Of a DNA stretch of 55,303 nucleotides, positions 19,944 to 38,328 are shown piece by piece. The notes beneath the pieces were generated by a model. It saw nothing but the letters and a program-made list of their open reading frames with translations. It had not been told where the DNA came from and made no database searches. Both the position numbers and the translations under genes were made by a program. This DNA comes from a virus: UHGV virus genome UHGV-0114783; one strand, given 5' to 3'. Each line of letters starts with the position of its first letter. The first letter of the stretch is position 1.

Positions 19944-20417
19944 ATGGCTGCATTAAAACCTGATGTGAAAGCCTTCATCATTCAGTCGCTTGCGTGCTAT
20001 GACACGCCATCGCAGGTGGTCGAGGCTGTCCAAAAAGAATTCGGGATCAAGATCACCCGCCAGCAGGCTGAATCTCACGACCCCACGAAGGCCAGCGGTA
20101 AGACGCTCGCCAAAAAGTGGATCGAGATGTTCCACGCGACGCGCGAACGGTTCCTGACCGAAACCAGCGACATTCCGATAGCGAACAAATCCTATCGCCT
20201 CCGCGTGCTTGACCGCATGGCAACCAAAACCGAGGGGATGAAAAACTTCTCCCTGACGGCGCAGCTTATCGAACAGGCCGCGAAAGAGGTTGGCGACGCT
20301 TACACCAATAAGCTGAAGGTTGAGAGCACTGGCAAGGATGGCGGCCCGATCAAGACCGAGACGACCAACCTCACCGCAGATCAGGCCGCAGAGATTTACC
20401 GCAAGATGATGGGGTGA
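19944..20417 (+). CDS. Terminase small subunit (putative)
   Basis: 157-aa ORF directly upstream of and overlapping the large terminase gene. Confidence 0.6.
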
Positions 20418-25389: not shown

Positions 25390-25409
25390 TGCATATCTGT
25401 ACCTTATGC
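25390..25409. repeat. Left flanking repeat TGCATatCTGTACCttATGC (candidate att site of nested element)
   Basis: Matches 38309..38328 at 16 of 20 positions with identical CTGTACC core. Confidence 0.4.
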
Positions 25410-25594
25410 AACTAATATCTATTAATCAGTGCGTTATCGTTCGGAATCATACGGCGTTACTGGCCTGAACCATAAAAATGACACTCCGAACATGTGCGGA
25501 TTTATTCGCCGGATTTCGCTTTGATTCGGTACATGAGGGACTAGAAAGAGAATCATGCGCCGTTTGCATTACATGGTAGCCAGAGAGGTGTTGA

Positions 25595-26824
25595 ATGATT
25601 GTTAGGCCACTAACTAGCGTCGAAGTGAAAAGCGCGAAGGCACAGGGCAAGGATTTCAGTTTGCACGATGGTTTCGGTTTGTTGCTTTACATCACAAGCC
25701 GGGGCGGTAAGTCATGGCGTTTTCGGTATGTACACCCGGTAACGAAGAAGAGACAAACCTATACCATTGGAAGATACCCGGAGTTTACTTTGTCCGAAGC
25801 GAGGGAGGAACGTTCGAAACTGCGCCGTATGGTAGCGCGGGGGATAGATCCGAACGAAGTCAAAAAAGATACCAGGAATGAACAGCGTAAAATGTACGCG
25901 CAGTCATTTCAGGCCGTTGCCGATGAATGGCTAAAAATCAAGATTAAAGAAGGTGCGAGAAGCAACACGCTTGAATCGCACAATGTGACGTTGAAGCATC
26001 TTTCCACGATTTTTAGGCATACCACAGTACATAAAATAAACGCAGCCGATACTATTCAGGCTTTTAAACCTTTCAGGGAAAGGCCATCAACGCTTACGAA
26101 AATGGTTATTACCATCAACGCCATAATGGATTATGCGGTAAATATTGGGGTTATTGAGCACAACCCACTATCGAAAATTGGTAAAGCATTCCCGGCTGAA
26201 AAAAACGAACCAAGAGCGACTTTACAGAAAGAGCGGTTGCCAGAATTTTTAAGCGCATGGAACGAGTTGAGCTTATGGGAGCCATCAAAGCTGGCATTAT
26301 TATTTCAGATCATTACGATGGTCCGACCTTCGGAAGCTGGCGGCGCTCTCTGGAATGAGATTGATTTTGATAATTCAATCTGGCAAATCCCTGCAAGCCG
26401 GATGAAAGGAAAGCGCCCCCACGTAGTCCCATTATCGAGCCAGGCTATAAACGTGCTTAAAGAGGCCGAAAAGTGGAAGCGCTGCGATTATGTTTTCCCC
26501 TCATGGCGAAAAGAAAATAAGCCGATCTCACGATGTGCGACTCAGGCCGGAATACACAAAACGTCGTTTAAAGGAATGATTGTTCCTCATGGGTTCAGGG
26601 CGTTGGCATCTACAGTTTTAAATGACGAGGGGTTCAACCCTGATGTGATTGAGGCTGCACTCGCTCACAAAAGCGCCGATGCGATTCGAAATGTTTATAA
26701 CCGTAGCGACTATCTGGAAAAACGCCGGGTTTTAATGCAATGGTGGGGGGACTTTATCGAGGCCGCAGAGCGTGGAGAGATACTGGAGACCAGCGGCGAT
26801 AAGGGCTTAAGGCTGGTTGTGTAG
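25595..26824 (+). CDS. int: Tyrosine integrase (P4-type) of the nested element
   Basis: 409-aa ORF, ATG with GAGAGG upstream; N-terminal KDFSLHDGFGLLLYITSRGGKSWRFRY and C-terminal HGFRALAST / AHK....R.VYNR motifs. Confidence 0.85.
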   Translation: MIVRPLTSVEVKSAKAQGKDFSLHDGFGLLLYITSRGGKSWRFRYVHPVTKKRQTYTIGRYPEFTLSEAREERSKLRRMVARGIDPNEVKKDTRNEQRKMYAQSFQAVADEWLKIKIKEGARSNTLESHNVTLKHLSTIFRHTTVHKINAADTIQAFKPFRERPSTLTKMVITINAIMDYAVNIGVIEHNPLSKIGKAFPAEKNEPRATLQKERLPEFLSAWNELSLWEPSKLALLFQIITMVRPSEAGGALWNEIDFDNSIWQIPASRMKGKRPHVVPLSSQAINVLKEAEKWKRCDYVFPSWRKENKPISRCATQAGIHKTSFKGMIVPHGFRALASTVLNDEGFNPDVIEAALAHKSADAIRNVYNRSDYLEKRRVLMQWWGDFIEAAERGEILETSGDKGLRLVV

Positions 26825-26966
26825 GGCATATCAATTTTTGGATAATTATGATTTCAAACGGGAATAGCTGGCTTTAAGCCAGCTTTTTTTATGCCCAAAG
26901 CTAACCGGAATGCGTTTTTTTTATTCAAATCATATATAATCATATCGAATATATACGGAGGTTTTT

Positions 26967-27179
26967 ATGTCTATAAGTGGCGGTGATATTCTGCTAAAAG
27001 GTGAAGTGAAAGCGCGTTTACGTTATCGCTCAGACTCGTCATTCTACGAGTTTCTAAAAGACGAGAAAAACGGCTTTCCAATGCCTTTTAAAGTCGGTGG
27101 GCGTAACTGCTGGTATGAAGATGAAGTAGATGCCTGGATAAGTAAACAAAGCGAGAAGCGCGGGATCTGCACATCATGA
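26967..27179 (+). CDS. AlpA-like small regulator/excisionase (putative)
   Basis: 70-aa ORF directly after the integrase gene. Confidence 0.55.
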   Translation: MSISGGDILLKGEVKARLRYRSDSSFYEFLKDEKNGFPMPFKVGGRNCWYEDEVDAWISKQSEKRGICTS

Positions 27180-27318
27180 ATGTTTGCAGATTTGGGAAAG
27201 AGGGCTTGCTAACGGCTATCCGGGCAAGCCCTTTTTATTGTCAGTGGTGGGGATCTGTAACTTACGGCCACCAGCGCCGGTAATCACCTTCTGGCTGGTG
27301 GCTTCACTGGCATGGCTA

Positions 27319-27678
27319 TTACGCTGCCGCATCATCTGAATTGAATTCAATGTGAATTCGGTCATAAGGCAGCACGATTTTTTCGCCGTCTTTGTCCAGA
27401 ACGCCGCCGTTAAGCAGTGACTGAACATCGTTATAAACACCGCGAAAATCACGGTTAACAATGCGTGATAGTTCGCGGATTGATACGGCTTGCGCTCCCT
27501 CCATCGCTTTGATGATCTGCCAGCGGTTAGGGGCAAGCATAGTTTTAGCCAGTTGTTCTACAGTGGGAAAAATCAGTTCGGAACCGATGAAATCCCCGTT
27601 CATTGCGCGGGAGGCGTCGGACATTGTCACCCGGAAAGCATCATCAACGGTCATTACTCTGACGGTCAGCACTCGCAT
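27319..27678 (-). CDS. HTH-containing protein of unknown function (second gene of a two-gene module)
   Basis: 119-aa ORF with HTH-like segment VSIRELSRIVNRDFRGVYNDVQSLL; 4-bp gap from the upstream gene. Confidence 0.45.
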   Translation of the reverse strand: MRVLTVRVMTVDDAFRVTMSDASRAMNGDFIGSELIFPTVEQLAKTMLAPNRWQIIKAMEGAQAVSIRELSRIVNRDFRGVYNDVQSLLNGGVLDKDGEKIVLPYDRIHIEFNSDDAAA

Positions 27679-27682
27679 GGTA

Positions 27683-27964
27683 TTACCTCCTCAACAGGTT
27701 TATGTCAGCCTGAAAGCTGGCGATCAGGTTCTCAATGGTGGTGAATGTCACCGGATATTCCCGATCATGGATGTGTTTGTGGTCGCCTTTGCCACGTTCG
27801 TTGTCGTAACGCATGACGCACTCGCCATCTACGATGTAGGCCAGACTGTACTTGTATTGGTGCTGGCTACCTAAAATTGCCGGGTCTACTTCCAGAATGC
27901 GGATCGAGGCGAAAGCGTTATCAGCTATCTGGATACGGCGGTTCATCAACTCAACAGCGGGCAT
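27683..27964 (-). CDS. Small protein of unknown function (first gene of a two-gene module)
   Basis: 93-aa ORF tightly coupled to the downstream HTH gene. Confidence 0.45.
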   Translation of the reverse strand: MPAVELMNRRIQIADNAFASIRILEVDPAILGSQHQYKYSLAYIVDGECVMRYDNERGKGDHKHIHDREYPVTFTTIENLIASFQADINLLRR

Positions 27965-28204
27965 TGGCTTATCTCCTTGTTGATGTAAATAATAACATCA
28001 CAAACGAATGATGTAAATGATTACATCATTGCGGGTAAGTTACCGATGGCATGAACGGTTCGCTGCTGGTGGCTCTCGATCTCCTGAAATCTCAGGAGAT
28101 TGCCGGGCATGATTTTAATCGGCGGACTTTTCCGCCGATTGAATACGGGCAGTTCGCTCCCTGCGTGTCGGTTTTGTTTGTGGATTATTCGCGTTTCGTT
28201 TCTG

Positions 28205-28310
28205 GTGAATTCGCATTCGCAATTTTTCCGAGAAGCCTTATCCGGCCTGCTTTGAGCAGTGTTCTCTCTTTGCGAATTCGCAATTCCATTCGCACTTTGA
28301 TTCGCAGTTT
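28205..28310. promoter_or_regulatory. Cluster of ATTCGCA heptamer repeats including the palindrome TGCGAATTCGCA
   Basis: Six or more copies of ATTCGCA within about 100 bp of non-coding-looking sequence. Confidence 0.4.
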
Positions 28311-28436
28311 TCAAATGTTCCCATTCCGGGGGCATGGACGATTCGACAGGTGTTACAAACGTTGGTGGTGAAATATCTTCTTGCGCTGGCGGGCAGGGTG
28401 TGGTTATGATTATTTCGCACCTCACAAAACGGGTGC

Positions 28437-28655
28437 CGGGTTTAGCAGCCTGAACGTTCTAGCGGGTAGCCGCTGATTTCCGTATAGCGGTATTTTTACG
28501 CCCGAAAACCAACCACACCCCCGATTTATGGCGGGGCGTGGTGGGGAGGCTTAACGCCTGCTGGTTTCCTAGAACGCCAGTCTGCTAACCCCGCCACGTC
28601 TCGCCACCCATGTTTAGCAGCATCTGGCGAGACTCCTTCAATATGTTCTAGGAGC
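28437..28655 (+). ncRNA. Candidate structured regulatory RNA region with mutually complementary repeats (P4 immunity-like arrangement)
   Basis: TTTAGCAGC...CGTTCTAG at 28441..28462 and again at 28613..28650, complementary block CTAGAACG...TCTGCTAA at 28569..28589, GC hairpin near 28512..28545. Confidence 0.35.
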
Positions 28656-28751
28656 CGCTAAAAATGGCTAGATCCGCACATCCAAAATTCACCTGGCGCT
28701 TTCTCGCGCTTAATCGCCACGACAAAAAAGCCAAACCTTGCCGTTTGTCCG

Positions 28752-29723
28752 TTGAGGCTGCGACCGAACGCGAAGCCCGCCGCATCCTTGCGCCGCACTT
28801 TATTTTGTCTCTGGCCGCACGTCTGCCAGTGCCGGAGGTGCGCCGTGTTTAACCTCCAGACTCTGACAGCCAAAGCCCGCGAGCTGCGCGGCAATGTCGT
28901 TAAAGCGGCGAGCACAAAGGGCAGTCGCACCATGACCCCTGTTTATGACCGCGACGAGCAGCGCAAGCTACGTGAGCGCATCCAGCAGACGCAACCGGAT
29001 TGGGTATTGCTCTGGTGGGATATTGCGACCGTAACCGGCTGGCGTACCAGCGATGTTTGCAACCTGCGCTATTCCTGCGTCAATTGGGAAACGGGGCAGG
29101 CGACAATTATCGTTGCCAAGCAAACCAAAGCCGCCGAAGCGCGGGCAACCCGCAAAGGTATTGAAATTGTGCGCCAGCAGCGCAAGGACGCCGCACGGCT
29201 CGCCGCTGACCATATCGCCTACATGAAGTGGGATAGTATCGGCTGTGATGAACTGGCCGCCGATATGAACGACGAAGAACAGGCGATTGTGTTCGGGCTG
29301 GTGGCAAAGGCTGACGTCAAGCACGACACCAAACAGTTACCGCCCGGCATCATCAAGCGGCTGCGTGACCGGCAGGATCGGAATCTGGTAGAGGACGACC
29401 TGGTATTTTCCCGCTCTCAAATCGAAAGTAACCGTTGTCAACGTCTGGAAGGTAGCGTGACCCGCCAAACCATCTGGCGCAAACTTCATGGCGTCATGGC
29501 GTGGTTTACCCGCTTCATTAACGCTAAATTGCGCCTGAGCGCCTATTCAAGCCGAAAAATAGCAGCCTTTAATCTTATGTCCGCAGGTGGCGAACAGGGC
29601 TTATTGGTGGCGTCTGAAATGCTGGGCCATAGCAACCCGGCGATAACTCGCACTTACCTTCAATTAGGCAGCAAAGCCGCCGCTATCCAGTCCCGTTTAG
29701 CAATGGAGGCCGGAAATGCGTAA
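28752..29723 (+). CDS. Divergent tyrosine-recombinase-like protein (start uncertain)
   Basis: ORF track 323 aa; C-terminal region with TGWRTSD ... LGHSNPAITRTYLQL resembling recombinase boxes; likely real start at an internal GTG/ATG (around 28846 to 28932). Confidence 0.45.
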   Translation: MRLRPNAKPAASLRRTLFCLWPHVCQCRRCAVFNLQTLTAKARELRGNVVKAASTKGSRTMTPVYDRDEQRKLRERIQQTQPDWVLLWWDIATVTGWRTSDVCNLRYSCVNWETGQATIIVAKQTKAAEARATRKGIEIVRQQRKDAARLAADHIAYMKWDSIGCDELAADMNDEEQAIVFGLVAKADVKHDTKQLPPGIIKRLRDRQDRNLVEDDLVFSRSQIESNRCQRLEGSVTRQTIWRKLHGVMAWFTRFINAKLRLSAYSSRKIAAFNLMSAGGEQGLLVASEMLGHSNPAITRTYLQLGSKAAAIQSRLAMEAGNA

Positions 29724-29895
29724 AACCTTCCAGATTGACGGATACGCTGTTAACAGGCGCGGGCATACGGTAGGGATTCACTACACCATGACCAGCACTA
29801 GCCCAGAAACAGCTAAATCTACTGCGCAACTACTGGCGCAGAAGGGCAGCTATAAACACGTTCGCATTACCCGCATTCGTGAGGTGGCAGCATGA
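29716..29895 (+). CDS. Small hypothetical protein (59 aa)
   Basis: Hand-translated ORF with GGAGG ahead of the ATG; overlaps neighbours by a few bases; not in ORF track. Confidence 0.4.
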   Translation: MRKTFQIDGYAVNRRGHTVGIHYTMTSTSPETAKSTAQLLAQKGSYKHVRITRIREVAA

Positions 29896-30155
29896 ACATA
29901 AATACCATCTACCGCCACCCGGCAGAGCTGGAAGCCGAAGCGATGCTATCTCGTAAAGAAGCATACCCGGATGATTTTACGCTGGCAGACCGAACAGCAG
30001 AACGCATGACCCGCGCCCGCAATGGGCTGGCTCACGTTATGACCGATTTAGCCACTCAACTAGACGATGAACAGGCCGCTATCGTGTATTGCTGGCTGAG
30101 TAAAGTCCTGACGATTATCGATATAGCCAGAATTGATGCGGAGGCCAGCGCATGA
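29892..30155 (+). CDS. Hypothetical protein
   Basis: 87-aa ORF, translationally coupled (ATGA overlap). Confidence 0.45.
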   Translation: MNINTIYRHPAELEAEAMLSRKEAYPDDFTLADRTAERMTRARNGLAHVMTDLATQLDDEQAAIVYCWLSKVLTIIDIARIDAEASA

Positions 30156-30373
30156 GCCAGTTACAACTGATTGATGCCACCTGTCAGATTGAACAGGCAC
30201 AGGCTGTTTTATCCATGTGGCTGGAGAGCACCACCAAAGACACTAGCCCCGACCTTCCGCGTCTTATCGGTTCAATCCTCACTTTGCTGCATGGCGTCCC
30301 GGAGGCAATGGAAGAAGCCGAAAGCAAGCTGGCTGACTATGTGATGCGTGAATATCGGGAGGGCAAGTCATGA
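30152..30373 (+). CDS. Hypothetical protein
   Basis: 73-aa ORF, coupled. Confidence 0.45.
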   Translation: MSQLQLIDATCQIEQAQAVLSMWLESTTKDTSPDLPRLIGSILTLLHGVPEAMEEAESKLADYVMREYREGKS

Positions 30374-30960
30374 GCTATCACGCAGAGGCAACGCCGCACG
30401 GCGTCAATATCATGACCAGCAATGATGCCGGGATATATGAGCATGTAGCCATTATAACCTATGAGAGCGCTGTAAGCCGTCTGGATGCGGGAGAGTACGA
30501 CGATACGCCAGATATCGGCTACGCCATTCATTTTGCCGTTGCTGATGGCGGGGCGCGTGGCTGGTTCGACTTTACTGCGCAGCATAACGTCACTATGTGG
30601 CGCTGGCTGATTGCTGCGACGTTCGTTTCTGAGATGAAGCGCGAAAACGGCACAACCTCCGTCACGGAGGCTGACGGCACAACATCGCAGGTGGCGATTT
30701 ACTCCAATGGTAATGCGGGCATGGTGATTTACCCGTTTGCTGAACGGCTGGCGATGGCGAACAACATCGAGGGCGCAATGATTGAGCGATACGGCGTCGA
30801 ACAGGGTACGGAAAACGCCATTGTGTTCTACCGCGCCATGCTGGACACGGAGCGCGGCGAGTTGACCCCGTTCGGGCGTCAGACGCTGGCAGAGCTACAC
30901 GATGGATTCATTGCCGATCTGAATGAAAACGGCTGGCCTGAAATGCCGCTGGCGCACTGA
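30370..30960 (+). CDS. Hypothetical protein
   Basis: 196-aa ORF immediately upstream of the primase gene. Confidence 0.45.
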   Translation: MSYHAEATPHGVNIMTSNDAGIYEHVAIITYESAVSRLDAGEYDDTPDIGYAIHFAVADGGARGWFDFTAQHNVTMWRWLIAATFVSEMKRENGTTSVTEADGTTSQVAIYSNGNAGMVIYPFAERLAMANNIEGAMIERYGVEQGTENAIVFYRAMLDTERGELTPFGRQTLAELHDGFIADLNENGWPEMPLAH

Positions 30961-30973
30961 GGGAGGTACACGA

Positions 30974-33754
30974 ATGCGTAATATCGACCTTATCCGCGAA
31001 GTGACCACCGCCGCAGCAGGGCGCTGGCCTTATGTGCTGGCTGGATTGTCTATCGACGTGCCTGATTCATCGCGCCGCCATGCCCCCTGCCCTGCATGTG
31101 GCGGTACGGATCGCTTCCGGTTCGATGATAACGGGCGCGGCAGCTTTATCTGCAACCAGTGCGGCGCGGGCGACGGGCTGGATTTAATCAAGCGGGTTAA
31201 CAACTGCGACACCACGGAGGCGGCGCACCTTGCCGCTGATGTGCTGGGTATTGATTACCGGGCAGCAGAAACCGACCCGACAGCAGCCAGCCAGAGGCGG
31301 GAGCAAATGGAGTCTGAGCGCCAGCAGCGCGAGCAGGAGCGCCAGAAACAGGCAGCAGAGGACGCAGAGCAGCGAAGGGCTACGTTTGCCAGCCTGTATG
31401 CCGGAATGCGCCAGAGCGTCACACGGGGCGAATCTGAATATCTGATGGCTAAGGGGCTGGACGGGTTCACTTTCCCGCTATTGCCTGATGGTTCAGTCCT
31501 GCTTGAGCTGGTGGATGAGTCCGGCGCAGTGGCAGCCGCACAGACCATCACCCCACAGGGAGAAAAGCGCCTTCTGACAGGTTCAGCAAAGCGCGGGGCA
31601 TATCACGCCGTAAACGCGCCAGAATCGCCGCAGAGCGTTTTAATTGCCGAGGGGCTGGCAACGGCGCTATCCGTTCACCAGATGCACCCCGAAGCGCTGG
31701 CGGTGGTCGCAGTGGACGCCGGAAACCTGCTTTCGGTCGCACAGCTTATGCGCCAAAAGCACCCTAACGCGCGGATCATCATTGCCGCAGACAATGACCA
31801 GAGCGCCGAAAGTGACAGAAGAGGAGGAGTGAAAATTAACACAGGTAAGGAGTGCGCGGAGAAAGCCGCAAAAGCCGTTGCTGGCTGGGCCTCGCTGCCA
31901 CCCGTGGACTACAAAGCGGACTGGAACGATTACCACCAACAATATGGACTGGAAGCCGCTACAGCAGCATTTAACGCCTCAATGTACCAACCGGAGGGTA
32001 AGAAAGTGGGTGTGACACTGGCAGCAATCGACGGCGGCAAGAAAAGCCCTGGTATCGACGACGACCTTAAACCGCGAGTAGAGAGCCGTTCGGATGGCAT
32101 TCACTGGATCACCCCGAAAGTGGACAAAGACACAGGGGAAATTATCAATACCGAGGCGTGGCTATGCTCTCCGCTGGAGATTGCTGGTGCAGGGAGTGAT
32201 AACGCCAGACAGCGCTTTCTGATCCTGCGTTGGGACGTTCCCGGCAATCGGGGGCAAGTTACCCGTGCGCTTCCTTGGGAGGACATTGGCGACCGCGAGG
32301 GATGGCGAACTCTGAAAAACGGCGGTGTCAGTGTGACGACCAAACCATCGTTGCGGGCAATTCTGGCCGACTGGCTACAGCGAACCGGTAGCGGCAAGGA
32401 GTGGCAGATCAGCCACACCACAGGCTGGCACAGCGGGGCGTACATCATGCCGGATGGTGATGTTATTGGTGATCCAGAGATACCGCTTTTATTCAGTGGC
32501 CGCAGTGCGGCGGCTGGTGGCTATACCGTCAGTGGAACGCCGGAAAGCTGGCGTGATTCGGTGGCGCGTCTTGCGTTGGGCAACCCGTCAATGATGCTGG
32601 GTGTTGCTGCTGCGCTGTCTGCACCGCTGATCGGGCTTGTTGGCGCTGACGGTTTCGGTGTTCACCTTTTCGAACAGTCCAGCGCAGGGAAGACGACGAC
32701 CGCCAACATTGCCAGCAGCTTATACGGTGAACCGGATGCCCTGCGCCTCACCTGGTACGGTACTGCGCTGGGTATCGCCAACGAAGCGGAAGCGCATAAC
32801 GACAGCCTGTTACCGCTGGACGAAGTGGGGCAGGGCAGTAGCGCCAAAGACGTTGCCACGTCGGCTTACACGCTGTTTAACGGTGCCGGAAAGTTACAGG
32901 GGGCGAAGGAGGGCGGCAACCGTGAGTTAAAGCGCTGGCGTACCGTGGCGATCAGTACCGGGGAAATGGACATTGAAACGTTTCTTTCTGCTGGTGGGCT
33001 GAAAGTTAAGGCCGGGCAACTGGTGCGACTGCTTAATTTACCGATGGAGAAATCAGTAACGCACCATGAGTACCAGAACGGGAAGCAACACGCCGACGCA
33101 CTCAAAGAGGCTTACCAGACGAACCACGGAGCCGCAGGCCGTGAATGGATTAAATGGCTTGCAGGCCACCAGCAGGAGGCAAAACAAGCTGTCAGAGCGG
33201 CGCAAGAGCGCTGGCGCAGTCTTATCCCCGCTGATTATGGCGAACAGGTTCATCGTGTAGGCGAGCGGTTCGCCATTCTGGAGGCGGCGCTGGTGCTTGG
33301 GATGCCTGTCACTGGCTGGGGGGAGCAGGAAAGCCGGGACGCCATCCAGCATGGCTTTAACGCCTGGGTGAAAGAGTTTGGCACGGGGAACCGTGAGCAT
33401 AAGCAGATCATCGAGCAGGCAGAGGCGTTTCTTAATGCATACGGACTGAGCCGATTTGCACCTTACCCTTATGACCCGGCTGACATGCCGATTCGGGATT
33501 TGGCCGGGTACCGTCAGAAAGGGGCGCATGATGCTGATCCGATAGTGTTCTACACGTTCCCGGCAGCATTCGAAGGTGAGATTGCGAAGGGATTCAACGC
33601 GAAACAGTTTGCCCGTGTGCTGGCCGGGGCTGGGGTGCTGAAACCGCCAGCCAGCGGAAGGGGGTATCAGCGTAAATCCCCGCGAATTGATGGACGCCAG
33701 ATAAACGTTTATGTGCTCCAGCTACGACCCGACGAGATAGAGGGTGAAGAATAA
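30974..33754 (+). CDS. Primase-helicase (P4 alpha-like: zinc ribbon, TOPRIM, Walker-A NTPase)
   Basis: ORF track 30923..33754 trimmed to the ATG at 30974; CPACGG...CNQCG zinc ribbon, TOPRIM-like IAEGLATA...IIIAADND, Walker A GADGFGVHLFEQSSAGKTT. Confidence 0.85.
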   Translation: MRNIDLIREVTTAAAGRWPYVLAGLSIDVPDSSRRHAPCPACGGTDRFRFDDNGRGSFICNQCGAGDGLDLIKRVNNCDTTEAAHLAADVLGIDYRAAETDPTAASQRREQMESERQQREQERQKQAAEDAEQRRATFASLYAGMRQSVTRGESEYLMAKGLDGFTFPLLPDGSVLLELVDESGAVAAAQTITPQGEKRLLTGSAKRGAYHAVNAPESPQSVLIAEGLATALSVHQMHPEALAVVAVDAGNLLSVAQLMRQKHPNARIIIAADNDQSAESDRRGGVKINTGKECAEKAAKAVAGWASLPPVDYKADWNDYHQQYGLEAATAAFNASMYQPEGKKVGVTLAAIDGGKKSPGIDDDLKPRVESRSDGIHWITPKVDKDTGEIINTEAWLCSPLEIAGAGSDNARQRFLILRWDVPGNRGQVTRALPWEDIGDREGWRTLKNGGVSVTTKPSLRAILADWLQRTGSGKEWQISHTTGWHSGAYIMPDGDVIGDPEIPLLFSGRSAAAGGYTVSGTPESWRDSVARLALGNPSMMLGVAAALSAPLIGLVGADGFGVHLFEQSSAGKTTTANIASSLYGEPDALRLTWYGTALGIANEAEAHNDSLLPLDEVGQGSSAKDVATSAYTLFNGAGKLQGAKEGGNRELKRWRTVAISTGEMDIETFLSAGGLKVKAGQLVRLLNLPMEKSVTHHEYQNGKQHADALKEAYQTNHGAAGREWIKWLAGHQQEAKQAVRAAQERWRSLIPADYGEQVHRVGERFAILEAALVLGMPVTGWGEQESRDAIQHGFNAWVKEFGTGNREHKQIIEQAEAFLNAYGLSRFAPYPYDPADMPIRDLAGYRQKGAHDADPIVFYTFPAAFEGEIAKGFNAKQFARVLAGAGVLKPPASGRGYQRKSPRIDGRQINVYVLQLRPDEIEGEE

Positions 33755-33778
33755 AAACACACATACGAGATGTTTTTT

Positions 33779-34073
33779 TGTTGGTTCAGTTGGTTCAGTA
33801 ACTATTTAATTAATATAAGTGTGTGTATTTAATGCATTTACATGCTTGTAAGTGAACCAACACCGAACCAACAAACGCCCATTTTGAACCAACAAATGCC
33901 GCTATTGAACCAACGCCCTTTTCTGGCTGGCCTGTAAATCTTTCCCACTGAACCAACACGAAAATAGCGTTTGTTGGTTCAAAACGGGGCTTTGTTGGTT
34001 CACTCCTAAAGAAATAATCCTTATAAAACAACAATCTTTACAAATTGAACCAACTGAACCAACTGAACCAACA
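33779..34073. repeat. Iteron array, about a dozen GAACCAAC/GTTGGTTC octamers in both orientations (candidate origin of the nested element)
   Basis: Direct reading: TTGGTTCAG x2, GAACCAAC x5, GTTGGTTC x2, then GAACCAACTGAACCAACTGAACCAAC, immediately downstream of the primase gene. Confidence 0.7.
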
Positions 34074-34355
34074 TGTTTTTGCTTATCTATAGAGTTTTTT
34101 CGGAGAGTAATTACTAATTTGGAGGGGCGTCGCCTAAGCGAAAGTATGCGGAAACGGCAACTTTGCGGAGCGGAAAAGAAAAAGCCCGCGCTGGAGAGGC
34201 GAGGGCTTTTGTTAACCATGTTTATGCAATCACACAACGGTGGATCACCGTCATAGTATCACGTCGATTTATCATTTCAATATGCGCAATGATATTTACT
34301 AACATTGCAATTTATGCAATGATCAGAATTTAAACAACGCAAAAGGTTATGAACA

Positions 34356-34919
34356 ATGAAACAGATAACCAATGTTAATCTGGAAAGTGATAACTCTGGT
34401 GGTACCGTCGAGGTGACTTACTCCGATGATACGTTCGAAAGGCTGACCTGCTCGCTTCCTGTGGCTCTCGTCATTGCGAATCTTGCAACGACGCTTAAGC
34501 AGGAACGTGCAACACGCATTGCAACTGGCGACCGCCTGCGTCGGATGTACACCCGCGATAGTGACATGATTACTCGCAGTGGCAGCGGCGCTTCTACGAC
34601 CTCCACCGCGCCAACGTCAATGGACGCTGAATTTATGCGCCTGGTACGCGCGGTAGCACCAAAGTATGACAACGCCCTTCCTGATACCGATCCTCGCCTT
34701 GTTGCGCTCGACGTGCTGCGTTACGCACCCGCTGAGGCATTCAGTGCGGTACATCCGACCCCGCTATCAGAGATTCAGCTTGATCAGGCTATCGACGTTC
34801 TGGAGCAGGTTGGCGACTACATGCGAGTTAACAACGTTTCACCGAAGATTCTCTCCACAGGCGACGCCATTCGCAGCATTAACACCGATAATGCCAGTTT
34901 CTGGCATCGCACGAAGTAA
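34356..34919 (+). CDS. Hypothetical protein
   Basis: 187-aa ORF after the iteron region. Confidence 0.45.
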   Translation: MKQITNVNLESDNSGGTVEVTYSDDTFERLTCSLPVALVIANLATTLKQERATRIATGDRLRRMYTRDSDMITRSGSGASTTSTAPTSMDAEFMRLVRAVAPKYDNALPDTDPRLVALDVLRYAPAEAFSAVHPTPLSEIQLDQAIDVLEQVGDYMRVNNVSPKILSTGDAIRSINTDNASFWHRTK

Positions 34920-34925
34920 GGAGCA

Positions 34926-35120
34926 ATGAGCATGGCTATTTATGACCCGAAATTAGCAGCAGGAAACCCGCAAAGCGCCGGGCGTAAACTCTTTGGCCGT
35001 GAGCATGCCGAGCAGTTACGTATGCGTAACAACTTCAACAACGAATGCCGCAATCTGGAAAAAGTCAACGAAGCGAATGCAAAGTTCTGGAGTGAACAGG
35101 ATGAAAAAGCCAAACGTTAA
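34926..35120 (+). CDS. Hypothetical protein
   Basis: 64-aa ORF. Confidence 0.35.
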   Translation: MSMAIYDPKLAAGNPQSAGRKLFGREHAEQLRMRNNFNNECRNLEKVNEANAKFWSEQDEKAKR

Positions 35121-35268
35121 ACCGGTATTACTTTCTGGCGACCAGTTCGCCGCAATCTGCAAGATCCAGGAGCGCGAACGCCAGCGCTCCGATATTGGCG
35201 TTGCGCCTTCTGTCCATCAAATTGCCCGTGGGCTGGTGGCGAAAGCGCTGGCATCAATTCAGGAATAA
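35101..35268 (+). CDS. Hypothetical protein (55 aa)
   Basis: ORF track 34993..35268 trimmed to the ATG at 35101. Confidence 0.3.
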   Translation: MKKPNVKPVLLSGDQFAAICKIQERERQRSDIGVAPSVHQIARGLVAKALASIQE

Positions 35269-35273
35269 CGACT

Positions 35274-36341
35274 ATGTCATATAACTGGATGCGCCATTTC
35301 GAGCTACAGCTCATCGATGAGAATGGCAAAGGAATTAGCCTTAGTGATTTCAAAGTTACCTTTGATATAGAGCGTAACGATAACAAATGGCCAGCTGTTG
35401 CGACGGTCAAGATCTACAACCTTTCACCAACTACTCAGAACCGTATTATGCAACGTGAGTTTGCCAAAATTGTGTTGATAGCGGGGTATGATGGTCGTGC
35501 GCAGGATGTAAGGGCAAGTGATGTGGGGATTGCACGTGAAATATCAGCAAGCGAAGTGGGCCAGGCTAACGGCGCAAACTACGGAGTCATTTTCAGCGGT
35601 GATATCCGCTTCACTGTGACCGGAAAAGATAACCCTGTCGATTCATGGGTACAGGTGCAGGCTTGTGACTCTGTGGAGGCGTTTACCAGCGCATTTATCA
35701 ACACCACTATCAGCAAAGGCTACACCACAGAAGATATTTATGTTGAGCTTATGAAAAGGCTGGAACCTTACGGCATTTCTCGCGGTATTGTTCCTGAATT
35801 CCCGGCAACGGTATTTCCTCGCGGTCGAGCCCTCTTTGGCTATGTCCATAACTATCTCGATGAAGTGGCCGCGCAGTGCAAAGCCACTTGGCAATTCAAC
35901 TATGGAAAAGTCGATATTGTTCCCAGAGACAAGGCCACTCATGAAGCTGTGGTTCTCAACGCTAATACCGGGCTTATCGGTATGCCTCAGCAGACCATCG
36001 GTGCGGGTGTGAATGTCAAATGCCTGATTAACTCACGGATTCACCTGAACGGGCTTATCCAACTGGATCAGGCTTCGGTATATCGTAGCGCCTTATCTGC
36101 GGATCAAATTGCCCAAGCTGGTGGGCCAATTTCGGTGGAAAGCCAAAACGGAAACCTTGTCACTACTGGATTAACGCAGAGTCCGGCGAGCATTGCTACC
36201 GATGGTATCTATAAGGTTCGGTATATCAGTTACACGGGCGACACGCGCGGTCAAGCGTGGTATATGGATCTGGCGTGTGAGGCTCGCGGGAATTCTGATT
36301 TATTTTCAAGTTCATTTATGAATAAGCAGAGTGAAGAATGA
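35274..36341 (+). CDS. Baseplate hub-like protein, diverged second copy
   Basis: 355-aa ORF colinear with 47449..48513 (shared WMRHFELQL, RFTVTGKDN, AVVLNANTGLIGMPQQT, YTGDTRGQAWYMDL blocks). Confidence 0.65.
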   Translation: MSYNWMRHFELQLIDENGKGISLSDFKVTFDIERNDNKWPAVATVKIYNLSPTTQNRIMQREFAKIVLIAGYDGRAQDVRASDVGIAREISASEVGQANGANYGVIFSGDIRFTVTGKDNPVDSWVQVQACDSVEAFTSAFINTTISKGYTTEDIYVELMKRLEPYGISRGIVPEFPATVFPRGRALFGYVHNYLDEVAAQCKATWQFNYGKVDIVPRDKATHEAVVLNANTGLIGMPQQTIGAGVNVKCLINSRIHLNGLIQLDQASVYRSALSADQIAQAGGPISVESQNGNLVTTGLTQSPASIATDGIYKVRYISYTGDTRGQAWYMDLACEARGNSDLFSSSFMNKQSEE

Positions 36342-36682
36342 AGAAGATTATTTTACTGATTGGTTTATTGGGCGCATCTGGAAGTCATGCTGCGCAGGTT
36401 ATTACCATGCAGTGCGGAAACTTTCGCTTTGAGATGATAGAAAACTCGATGGCGAGAATTAATGGTGAGTATGTAACATCTCAGAAAATTACAGAGTTCG
36501 GACAGAACGGGGCAAAAGTAGAAATGACGCTTATGCCTGCCAGCGATGGGAATCTGTATGGGTTTGAATACATCCATCCTGACGGTAGCAAAAAGCGCTG
36601 GCTGAATGTTGAGCTTATCCGCACCAATATGAATCAGGCGCGGATCATTGGCTCGTTTGATTGTAAGCGCGTGAAGGGGTAA
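36338..36682 (+). CDS. Small secreted protein with conserved QCG.F and DCK...KG motifs (second copy)
   Basis: 114-aa ORF with signal-peptide-like N-terminus, same position between hub and spike genes as the phage copy. Confidence 0.5.
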   Translation: MKKIILLIGLLGASGSHAAQVITMQCGNFRFEMIENSMARINGEYVTSQKITEFGQNGAKVEMTLMPASDGNLYGFEYIHPDGSKKRWLNVELIRTNMNQARIIGSFDCKRVKG

Positions 36683-36690
36683 GGGGAATC

Positions 36691-37353
36691 ATGCCATTCA
36701 TTCGACCCGCAAATGAGCAGGATGTAACACAGCTTGTTCAGGACAATGCTAAAGCATCTGTAACCAATGCGTTACCTGGCATTATTCGTTCGTTCGATCC
36801 CGAAACTGTCACCTGCGATGTTGATATAGCCATTACGGCAAGAATGACGAAGGCTGGCACAATGGGTGAAGATTTCCAGTATGAGTCCGTCCGCTATCCG
36901 ATTCTTAACGATTTGCCTGTGGTTTTTCCGCGCGGGGGCGGAGTTACGCTTACTTTCCCGGTTAAAGATGGTGATGAATGCCTCATCGTATTCTCTTCGC
37001 GTTCGATTGATTTCTGGTGGCAGAACGGCGGTGTGCAGGAGCGAGCTGATGGGCGTATTTTAGATCTGTCTGATGCGTTCGTTATTCCTGGCCCCCAATC
37101 ACAGGTAAAGAAGATATCCAATATCAGTACCAACGCTGCGCAGCTGCGTACAGATGATGGAGCGGCATTTGTAGAGGTGTCCGCTGGTGGAGCCATTACT
37201 ATTACCAGCTCTCAAATCACCCTTAACGGGCCCGTGCAGGTAAACGGAACGATCACTTCCACTGGCGACCAAACGGCCAACGGTATCAGCCAGATTAACC
37301 ATACCCACGGCGGCGTACAATCAGGCGGCAGCAACACAGGAAAACCACAATGA
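36691..37353 (+). CDS. Baseplate central spike protein (gpV-like), diverged second copy
   Basis: 220-aa ORF colinear with 49246..49986 (shared FPRGGG.TLTFPVK.GDECL, DLSDAF, TDDGAAFVEV, HGGVQ.GG..TG.PQ end). Confidence 0.65.
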   Translation: MPFIRPANEQDVTQLVQDNAKASVTNALPGIIRSFDPETVTCDVDIAITARMTKAGTMGEDFQYESVRYPILNDLPVVFPRGGGVTLTFPVKDGDECLIVFSSRSIDFWWQNGGVQERADGRILDLSDAFVIPGPQSQVKKISNISTNAAQLRTDDGAAFVEVSAGGAITITSSQITLNGPVQVNGTITSTGDQTANGISQINHTHGGVQSGGSNTGKPQ

Positions 37354-37529
37354 GCAATATTGAAAAACTGAAACCAGAAGAAAGCGGAGCCAGCCAGAAT
37401 GGAAAGGTTCGTACCTGGCTGGATGATATCAACGGGCAGCCGGAACCAGATGGTATTGGCAGCTTCGGTGAGAGTGCGATCTGCGAAGAATCACGCACAG
37501 CGGAAACCATGCGAAATAACGTAGGGTGA
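37350..37529 (+). CDS. Small hypothetical protein (59 aa)
   Basis: Hand-translated ORF starting at the ATGA overlap with the preceding gene; not in ORF track. Confidence 0.3.
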   Translation: MSNIEKLKPEESGASQNGKVRTWLDDINGQPEPDGIGSFGESAICEESRTAETMRNNVG

Positions 37530-37619
37530 CGGTCAGATGACGTGATCTGTAACTTTAAGTAGCGGTGCAGGGGCAGAACTCAGCACGCTACTTTTATTTT
37601 CTTTGTCAAAAGGTGAACA

Positions 37620-38093
37620 ATGGCGGCATTACCAACAATGGCTAAGGTTATGATTATTCAATCATTAGCTTGCTACGAACCCCCTTCCAGAATCGTTGAG
37701 CTTGTAAAACAAGATTTTGGCATCGTCGTTACCCGGCAGCAGATATCGGCCTACAACCCTGAAAATACAATGGCAAAAAATCTTAGCCAAAAATGGGTAG
37801 AACTCTTTAATCACACTCGCGCCCGCTTCCAGAGTGAAATATCCGAGATCCCTATCGCTAACAAAGCGTACCGGCTGCGTATGCTCGATCGCATGGCTAA
37901 CCGTGCAGAGGCAATCAAGAATTACGCATTAACAGCGCAGCTTATTGAACAGGCCGCGAAAGAGTGCGGGGACGCTTACACCAACAAATTAAAGGTTGAA
38001 ACAACGGGTAAAGATGGTGGTCCGATCAGAACGGAAACAACGAACTTAACCGCCGAAGAAGCCGGGGAGGCATACCGCAAATTTATGGGATAA
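37620..38093 (+). CDS. Orphan terminase small subunit homolog (no adjacent TerL)
   Basis: 157-aa ORF colinear with the phage TerS at 19944..20417, roughly two-thirds identical by eye, nearly identical C-terminal third. Confidence 0.65.
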   Translation: MAALPTMAKVMIIQSLACYEPPSRIVELVKQDFGIVVTRQQISAYNPENTMAKNLSQKWVELFNHTRARFQSEISEIPIANKAYRLRMLDRMANRAEAIKNYALTAQLIEQAAKECGDAYTNKLKVETTGKDGGPIRTETTNLTAEEAGEAYRKFMG

Positions 38094-38308
38094 CCACCAG
38101 CGCCGTGACACGTCACACGCAAAAATAGCACCGCCCATTAATGGGCTGGTGGCACAGCTTGCATATTGAAATTCCCTGTAAATCTTACAGATCTGGTATT
38201 GAGTAACTTACCCCATTCAGCGCCACACATCACAGAGCAGCCTATGGACTACACACAAAATCAGGCTGAAAATAAATCCTTATATTTCAGTTGATTAAAT
38301 AATAGCCT

Positions 38309-38328
38309 TGCATTCCTGTACCGGATGC
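38309..38328. repeat. Right flanking repeat TGCATtcCTGTACCggATGC (candidate att site of nested element)
   Basis: Matches 25390..25409; the ATG within it is the start codon of the next head gene. Confidence 0.4.

Follow-up and report, generated by a model that had tools for sequence, protein, structure and literature searches.

A toxin-first TumE-family gene pair with a predicted two-operator promoter in a P4-type satellite

Two small genes, separated by 4 bp, lie beside the integrase of a P4-type element that is itself inserted in a prophage. What do these genes encode, how is their expression controlled, and what could they contribute to the element that carries them? An earlier note on the viral genome UHGV-0114783 (55,303 nucleotides, the whole of which is called the window here) had described a 93-aa protein followed by a 119-aa protein containing a helix-turn-helix (HTH), both encoded on the strand opposite to the integrase and AlpA-like genes, and had guessed from this shape a toxin-antitoxin or defence module. 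The arrangement, with two closely spaced minus-strand genes, is confirmed by the ORFs and the sequence. We present the pair as a probable TumE-family operon, a type II toxin-antitoxin system in which the toxin gene comes first and the winged-helix partner acts as autorepressor. This reading rests on the gene structure, the family membership, the order and pairing of the genes, the layout of the operators and the way in which operator and recognition helix co-vary, all of which come from the present analysis.

Two adjacent genes and their families

The pair and its immediate surroundings are as follows.

25595..26824, plus strand: integrase gene with Arm DNA-binding domain (Pfam)
26967..27179, plus strand: AlpA-like gene (Pfam, 20.5 bits, just below the gathering cut-off of 21)
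27204..27240, no strand assigned: GC-rich hairpin GGGCTTGC...GCAAGCCC, where alpA and the partner gene converge
27319..27678, minus strand: partner gene (TumA-like), presumed antitoxin and autorepressor, 119 aa, ATG start
27683..27964, minus strand: tumE, presumed toxin gene, 93 aa, ATG start
27973..27978, minus strand: strong Shine-Dalgarno sequence AAGGAG of tumE, 8 nt 5′ of the ATG, as read from the sequence

The stop codon of tumE, TAA (27685..27683), is followed on the coding strand by TACC and then by the ATG of the partner gene (27678..27676). A second strong Shine-Dalgarno sequence, GAGGAGG, lies immediately 5′ of this ATG, and because it sits inside the end of tumE, translational coupling of the two genes is plausible. 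Both proteins pass the Pfam gathering thresholds and are conserved, with 105 cluster-level homologues for the 93-aa protein and 43 for the 119-aa protein, so that tumE and the partner gene can be taken as real genes rather than chance reading frames. For the same reasons, that is, the Pfam matches and the conservation of the minus-strand genes, a plus-strand ORF overlapping both of them (27461..27874) was rejected as a shadow ORF. Another plus-strand ORF (27184..27339, 51 aa), which spans the hairpin between alpA and the partner gene and overlaps the 3′ end of the latter, is very probably spurious; in E. coli ECONIH5 it is named 'MYXO-CTERM sorting domain-containing protein' by RefSeq. The hairpin itself is flanked by a T-run on the plus strand and by a weaker TCTTTCCC on the minus strand, and the minus-strand RNA of 27185-27325 folds with -46.4 kcal/mol (z = -2.65). 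It was missed by a consensus terminator scan, its loop being long, and it probably serves as a bidirectional terminator for the alpA and partner transcripts, as judged from these sequence features.

The 93-aa protein matches PF20126 'Toxin TumE' (formerly DUF6516) (E-value of 7.5e-16; 58.3 bits, cut-off 23.4), and the alignment spans positions 1-80 of the 81 positions of the model, that is, the whole domain. It also matches phrog_16135 (3e-34), a PHROGs family of unknown function, and its homologues in RefSeq and UniRef are named 'toxin-antitoxin system TumE family protein' or TumE/DUF6516. NCBIfam gave nothing useful for either protein except one spurious 15-bit match to TIGR02186. The AF2 model of the 93-aa protein (pLDDT 94.9) has six antiparallel strands and, at the C-terminus, one helix, whereas the family has been described as a seven-strand antiparallel sheet with two helices (PMC10584680). 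A sequence search of the PDB found no TumE relative and no solved relative was found for the predicted fold, as had been reported for the fold of TumE (PMC10584680). Ten residues are invariant in 57 TumE sequences (N55, E56, G58, G60, D61, H62, H64, F74, L80 and F84) and ten more are kept in at least 90% of them (S33, H35, K38, Y39, D54, R57, K59, K63, I65 and E69). They include a conserved run, D54-N-E-R-G-K-G-D-H-K-H64, the charged residues of which are candidates for an active or binding site.

The 119-aa partner matches PF25212 'HVO_A0114' (E-value of 1e-18, 67.3 bits, cut-off 27.6) and phrog_11214 (6e-17), again a PHROGs family of unknown function, and the name of its homologues is 'HVO_A0114 family putative DNA-binding protein'. 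In its AF2 model (pLDDT 84), an N-terminal beta-alpha-beta unit (residues ~1-37) precedes a winged HTH (wHTH; ~40-112), the recognition helix of which begins at F78 within the motif R-D-x-[RK]. The best structural neighbours found by Foldseek are the wHTH regulators ArsR, SmtB, CadC and NolR, with a probability of 1.0 but an E-value of only ~2e-3. PADLOC gave only weak generic wHTH matches to CasR, Csa3 and CARF models (E 1e-3 or weaker), and PDB sequence matches to Cif and to an 'ATP/GTP binding protein' (E ~0.06) were dismissed as noise. The N-terminal unit is probably the part that binds the toxin, as we infer. Thus the family, which the earlier note could not name, was identified by HMM searches as TumE/DUF6516 (PF20126) together with HVO_A0114 (PF25212), and the HTH seen there was found to be a winged one by PF25212, by the AF2 model and by Foldseek. 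The guess of a toxin-antitoxin module gains support from the homology of the two proteins to a toxin family and to a DNA-binding wHTH family; clear homology to ordinary regulators, which had been thought of as an argument against that guess, is not what the 93-aa protein displays, since its homology is to the toxin family.

The definition of TumE-TumA goes back to Durairaj et al. (2023, Nature 622:646; PMC10584680). In that study, E. coli was poisoned by each of six gammaproteobacterial DUF6516 proteins (subcluster 1a), an effect neutralised by the cognate partner, and TumE of Allochromatium tepidum reduced the incorporation of 35S-methionine; an RNase activity was proposed but explicitly described as unproven (PMC10584680). 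DUF6516 was predominantly encoded downstream of its partner, and one family of partners is RelB-like (PMC10584680). The sizes of the validated proteins, estimated from the lengths of the synthetic DNAs in the supplement of that paper, are ~115-136 aa for the toxins and ~79-112 aa for the antitoxins. A search of the open-access literature found no further study of TumE or DUF6516, other mentions being made in passing or as annotation. The pair in the window resembles TumE-TumA in that it is a tight two-gene operon with a full-length TumE domain and a predicted DNA-binding partner. It differs in that the validated systems have larger toxins preceded by small antitoxins, whereas here a 93-aa toxin comes first and is followed by a 119-aa wHTH protein of the HVO_A0114 family.

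Gene order and distribution

How widely is this toxin-first arrangement found? Of 5,426 complete E. coli genomes, just those of ET791 and ECONIH5 contain near-identical DNA (97-98% identity); in ECONIH5, the small gene is annotated by RefSeq as 'toxin-antitoxin system TumE family protein' and its partner as 'hypothetical protein'. At the cluster level, homologues are common in Salmonella, E. coli, Shigella, Pantoea, Yersinia, Serratia and Buttiauxella. Scanning one genome per species for the motif DNERGKGD confirmed at least 589 stretches as relatives, the best 80 of which, searched with an HMM made from partner homologues, constitute the locus set used here. These 80 loci cover Entero-, Beta-, Alpha- and Gammaproteobacteria as well as MAGs labelled Planctomycetes and Acidobacteria (Vicinamibacterales and Thermoanaerobaculia).

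Within these best 80 loci, a partner-like ORF lies directly downstream of tumE on the same strand in 76 of the 77 that could be evaluated and upstream in none, and in the sole exception the partner is truncated. The same order was seen in an independent set of 77 IMG/VR viral contigs (76/76 evaluable), so that toxin-first pairing amounts to 152 of 153 evaluable related loci. A profile search against 1.84 billion cluster representatives (50% identity) yielded 1,871 clusters at E ≤ 1e-3, and most of the best 150 of them are 90-105 aa in length. From this constancy of order together with the clusters of the profile search, we conclude that the compact toxin-first TumE proteins make up a large and coherent subclass whose architecture is fixed.

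The subclass occurs in chromosomes, plasmids, phages and satellites. It was found on 74 PLSDB plasmids, mostly of Rhizobium, Acetobacter, Mycetohabitans and Caballeronia, and one copy is an opposite-strand moron in the Stx1c phage phiSTEC1589-Stx1c. Such a spread over plasmids, viral contigs and an Stx1c phage fits an addiction module.

Promoter, operators and the recognition helix

HigB-HigA, MqsR-MqsA and HicA-HicB are well-established type II toxin-antitoxin systems in which the toxin gene comes first and the antitoxin has an HTH. In these systems the antitoxin has a separate DNA-binding domain, through which it represses its own promoter via palindromic operators over the -35 and -10 elements. 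Is the pair in the window controlled in a similar manner? It shares with them the order of toxin and antitoxin, and operators over both promoter elements are predicted upstream of tumE.

27989..28017, minus strand: putative sigma-70-like promoter (consensus, 10 of 12 matches plus TG)
28009..28028, no strand assigned: putative operator 1, 20-bp palindrome TGATGTAAATGATTACATCA (TGATG-N10-CATCA), overlapping the -35
27981..28000, no strand assigned: putative operator 2, 20-bp palindrome TGATGTAAATAATAACATCA (TGATG-N10-CATCA), overlapping the -10

The promoter is composed of a -35 element TTTACA (28017..28012), a 17-nt spacer and an extended -10 element TG-TATTAT ending at 27989. The two operators are 28 bp apart, and 0.08 such sites would be expected by chance per window. 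A strict version of this layout (a pair of perfect 5-N10-5 palindromes that share their half-site and are spaced by 27-29 bp) recurs in 22 of the 80 loci, again the best 80 of at least 589 relatives, against 0.005 expected, and a relaxed two-palindrome layout in 47 of the 80 against 0.09 expected in shuffles. A 10-nt spacer within the palindrome is clearly favoured over other lengths in these loci, and the -35 and -10 elements of related loci are placed inside the two palindromes as they are in the window. The layout is found across phyla, far beyond enterobacteria. In most non-enteric loci the ATG of tumE comes directly after operator 2, with the -10 ending ~7 nt upstream; loci L021, L024 and L047 (within L007-L081) are examples. 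The window's tumE has a leader of ~18 nt with a Shine-Dalgarno sequence. Since the ATG directly follows operator 2, this position suggests that most non-enterobacterial transcripts are leaderless and that a leader with a Shine-Dalgarno sequence was acquired in the enterobacterial copies.

The half-site differs by lineage and can be TGTTG, TGATG, CGTTG, TATGG or ATTGC. It varies together with residue 78 of the partner, the first of the recognition helix, as counted after removal of identical upstream regions.

Residue 78 is F: half-site TGATG in 15 of 15 loci
Residue 78 is V or I: half-site (T/C)GTTG in 82 of 92 loci, TGATG never
Residue 78 is Y: half-site neither TGATG nor (T/C)GTTG in 17 of 17 loci

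The association gives P = 6e-18 by Fisher's exact test, a value uncorrected for phylogeny. The partner in the window shares 44.5% identity with a TGTTG-type Pantoea protein and 38.7% with a TGATG-type Bradyrhizobium protein; since the lineages that combine F with TGATG have their nearest relatives elsewhere, the half-site is implied to have switched independently at least twice. The copy in phiSTEC1589-Stx1c, with V at residue 78 and TGTTG half-sites, obeys the rule. Column 40 of the partner also separated the classes at first but failed in the independent viral set, and only column 78 held in both sets. It is this co-variation of the half-site with a residue of the recognition helix that argues for autorepression: there is good indirect evidence, drawn from sequence comparison, that the partner binds the two operators, which would be the autoregulation typical of type II toxin-antitoxin systems.

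One more perfect TGATG-N10-CATCA, TGATGTGAAAGCCTTCATCA, is present in the window at 19961-19980, where it occupies codons 6-12 of the prophage DUF2280 gene (19944-20417), a small-terminase-like (TerS-like) gene. The satellite has its own DUF2280 gene (37620..38093), the product of which is 65% identical to that of the prophage, without this site. A third site is weakly unexpected (0.08 per window). It could be a target of the winged-helix protein of the satellite or a coincidence in coding sequence.

The satellite and the likely role of the pair

The pair is carried by a P4-type element of 12.9 kb (insert about 25404..38315), flanked by a 7-bp direct repeat, CTGTACC, at 25397-25403 and 38316-38322. 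This 7-bp core was recognised by comparison with an uninterrupted prophage (E. coli AR_0119), which reads ATGACTGCATATCTGTACCGGATGCCT across the site; direct repeats of 10 bp or more were not found at the ends of the insert. The element lies inside the first seven codons of the gene for the prophage gp24 'structural cement protein', directly after the DUF2213 gene, and gp24 retains an in-frame ATG at 38325 that would give a protein of 160 aa instead of 167. A satellite within the head-gene cluster of a prophage that is possibly its own helper is unusual. Further features of the element are listed below; it also has a zinc-ribbon/Toprim/DUF927 primase gene.

28524..28611, plus strand: C4/CI-type antisense RNA of P4/P1/P7-type RNA immunity (Rfam RF01695, 76 bits, gathering threshold 45)
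28752-29723, plus strand: second, shorter tyrosine-recombinase-like gene (partial match to PF00589, E 1.5e-10)
35274..36341: baseplate-hub-like gene
36691..37353: spike-like gene
37620..38093: satellite DUF2280 gene

The C4 RNA is located between the promoter of tumE and the Icd-like and recombinase-like genes. The Icd-like gene was not called in the window and is deduced from the annotation of sister elements, in all of which the second recombinase-like gene downstream of it is kept. About 500 bp between the tumE operators and the C4 RNA (28030-28520) contain no convincing ORF; a perfect 9-bp inverted repeat is present there at 28079-28100. The satellite DUF2280, baseplate-hub-like and spike-like genes may redirect packaging or alter the virion of the helper.

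Five sister elements occupy the same prophage site in complete E. coli genomes. The TumE pair is present in three, namely those of ECONIH5, ET791 and the window's close IMG/VR relatives; the element of EC2001 has a different gene of 387 bp after alpA, and that of ABWA45 has other content again after int and alpA. Because the content differs among sister elements, the position between alpA and the C4 RNA is a variable cargo slot. In P4-like satellites a hotspot has been defined between psu and int, and the anti-phage systems found beside int include the toxin-antitoxin-like gop-beta-cII (Rousset et al., 2022; PMC9122126). The slot described here is bounded by alpA (26967..27179) and the C4-type RNA (28524..28611), not by psu and int; no psu was found among the ten element ORFs scanned or among the annotations of the sister elements, and none of psu, delta and sid is among the annotated genes of the element. 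The slot is thus only analogous to the psu-int hotspot, and the view of the earlier note that the pair is cargo next to the integrase stands as far as the variable slot among the five sister elements is concerned but not as an assignment to that hotspot. The pair is similar to gop-beta-cII of P4 in being a toxin-antitoxin-like accessory module near a P4-type integrase, with content that varies between related elements. The proteins of the two are unrelated, and anti-phage activity is a demonstrated feature of gop-beta-cII (PMC9122126) but a conjectured one of the pair in the window.

An outline of how the pair would work is as follows. A single promoter would give a bicistronic mRNA for tumE and the partner gene, with translation of the latter coupled to that of the former. 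If it acts like the one TumE studied in this respect, the 93-aa TumE toxin would stop growth through a block of protein synthesis, and the partner most likely binds and neutralises it, probably via its N-terminal extension. A dimer of the partner most likely binds the two 20-bp palindromes covering the -35 and -10 elements, so that the operon would be repressed. Toxicity, neutralisation, the translational target and the biological role are all transferred here from the TumE family and from the architecture of the operon. As accessory cargo of a P4-type satellite, the pair would most likely be of benefit through post-segregational stabilisation (addiction) of satellite and prophage, and possibly through abortive-infection defence.

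Could defence be the primary role? The pair would then be an abortive-infection module protecting the host or the helper from competing phages, with infection freeing the toxin, for example when a shut-off of transcription lets a labile partner decay. The place of the pair within a P4-type satellite, in a slot with variable cargo, the precedent of anti-phage systems such as gop-beta-cII beside int (PMC9122126) and the occurrence of the subfamily as a moron in temperate phages speak for such a role. On the other hand, no defence model of PADLOC-DB v2 matches the TumE protein, the literature search found no paper in which defence is linked to TumE or DUF6516, the classical psu-int hotspot is absent here, and the abundance of the subfamily on large rhizobial and Acetobacter plasmids equally fits plain addiction. 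We regard anti-phage defence as an unlikely primary role. Quite unlikely is a more far-reaching version, in which compact TumE with HVO_A0114 would be a distinct and very widespread subclass, its toxin having a fold with no solved counterpart and a chemistry centred on DNERGKGDHKH, and would act here as an infection-triggered abortive-infection or helper-control module, the site in the small-terminase-like gene of the helper being a real cross-regulatory target.

Alternatively, the pair might be no toxin-antitoxin system at all: a harmless 93-aa protein would serve as co-regulator or sensor and modulate the wHTH protein, itself an ordinary transcription factor, and the two might control genes of the satellite or the helper. 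Such a pair would agree with the ArsR/SmtB-like wHTH of the partner and its clear predicted operators, with the third perfect TGATG-N10-CATCA in the 5′ part of the DUF2280 gene of the helper, and with the fact that the evidence of toxicity is limited to larger TumE proteins outside the compact subclass. It is nevertheless very unlikely: the 93-aa protein exceeds the TumE threshold of Pfam over the full model, all six of the assayed TumE proteins were toxic (PMC10584680), and the conserved charged motif DNERGKGDHKH resembles an active or binding site rather than a part of a passive co-factor. In addition, the module is dispensable among the sister satellites and hence is not a core regulator, and the single extra site, located in coding sequence, is only mildly surprising. 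A reversal of roles, with the 119-aa protein as the toxin and the 93-aa protein as the antitoxin, would follow the order of most type II systems, in which the antitoxin gene comes first, but it is highly improbable, as the first gene encodes a homologue of TumE, a validated toxin, the second encodes a DNA-binding wHTH protein, a typical feature of antitoxins, and there are well-known operons, HigBA, MqsRA and HicAB, in which the toxin precedes an HTH antitoxin.

The toxin-first, autorepressed TumE operon is thus the reading we retain. For annotation, it means that the pair is a TumE-family toxin-antitoxin system and that the 'hypothetical protein' beside TumE in RefSeq is its winged-helix partner. 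The pair is nothing categorically new, as it is a member of the known TumE family, already labelled as such by annotation pipelines. What is added to the TumE paper (PMC10584680) and to the literature covered by our search is a large toxin-first subclass with an obligatory HVO_A0114 partner, a conserved two-operator promoter in that subclass, and a link between residue 78 of the partner and the base at the third position of the half-site, TGATG going with F and TGTTG with V or I. For the biology of satellites, the pair would be one more addiction-type cargo in the variable slot of an unusual P4-type element residing in the head-gene cluster of a prophage that is possibly its helper.
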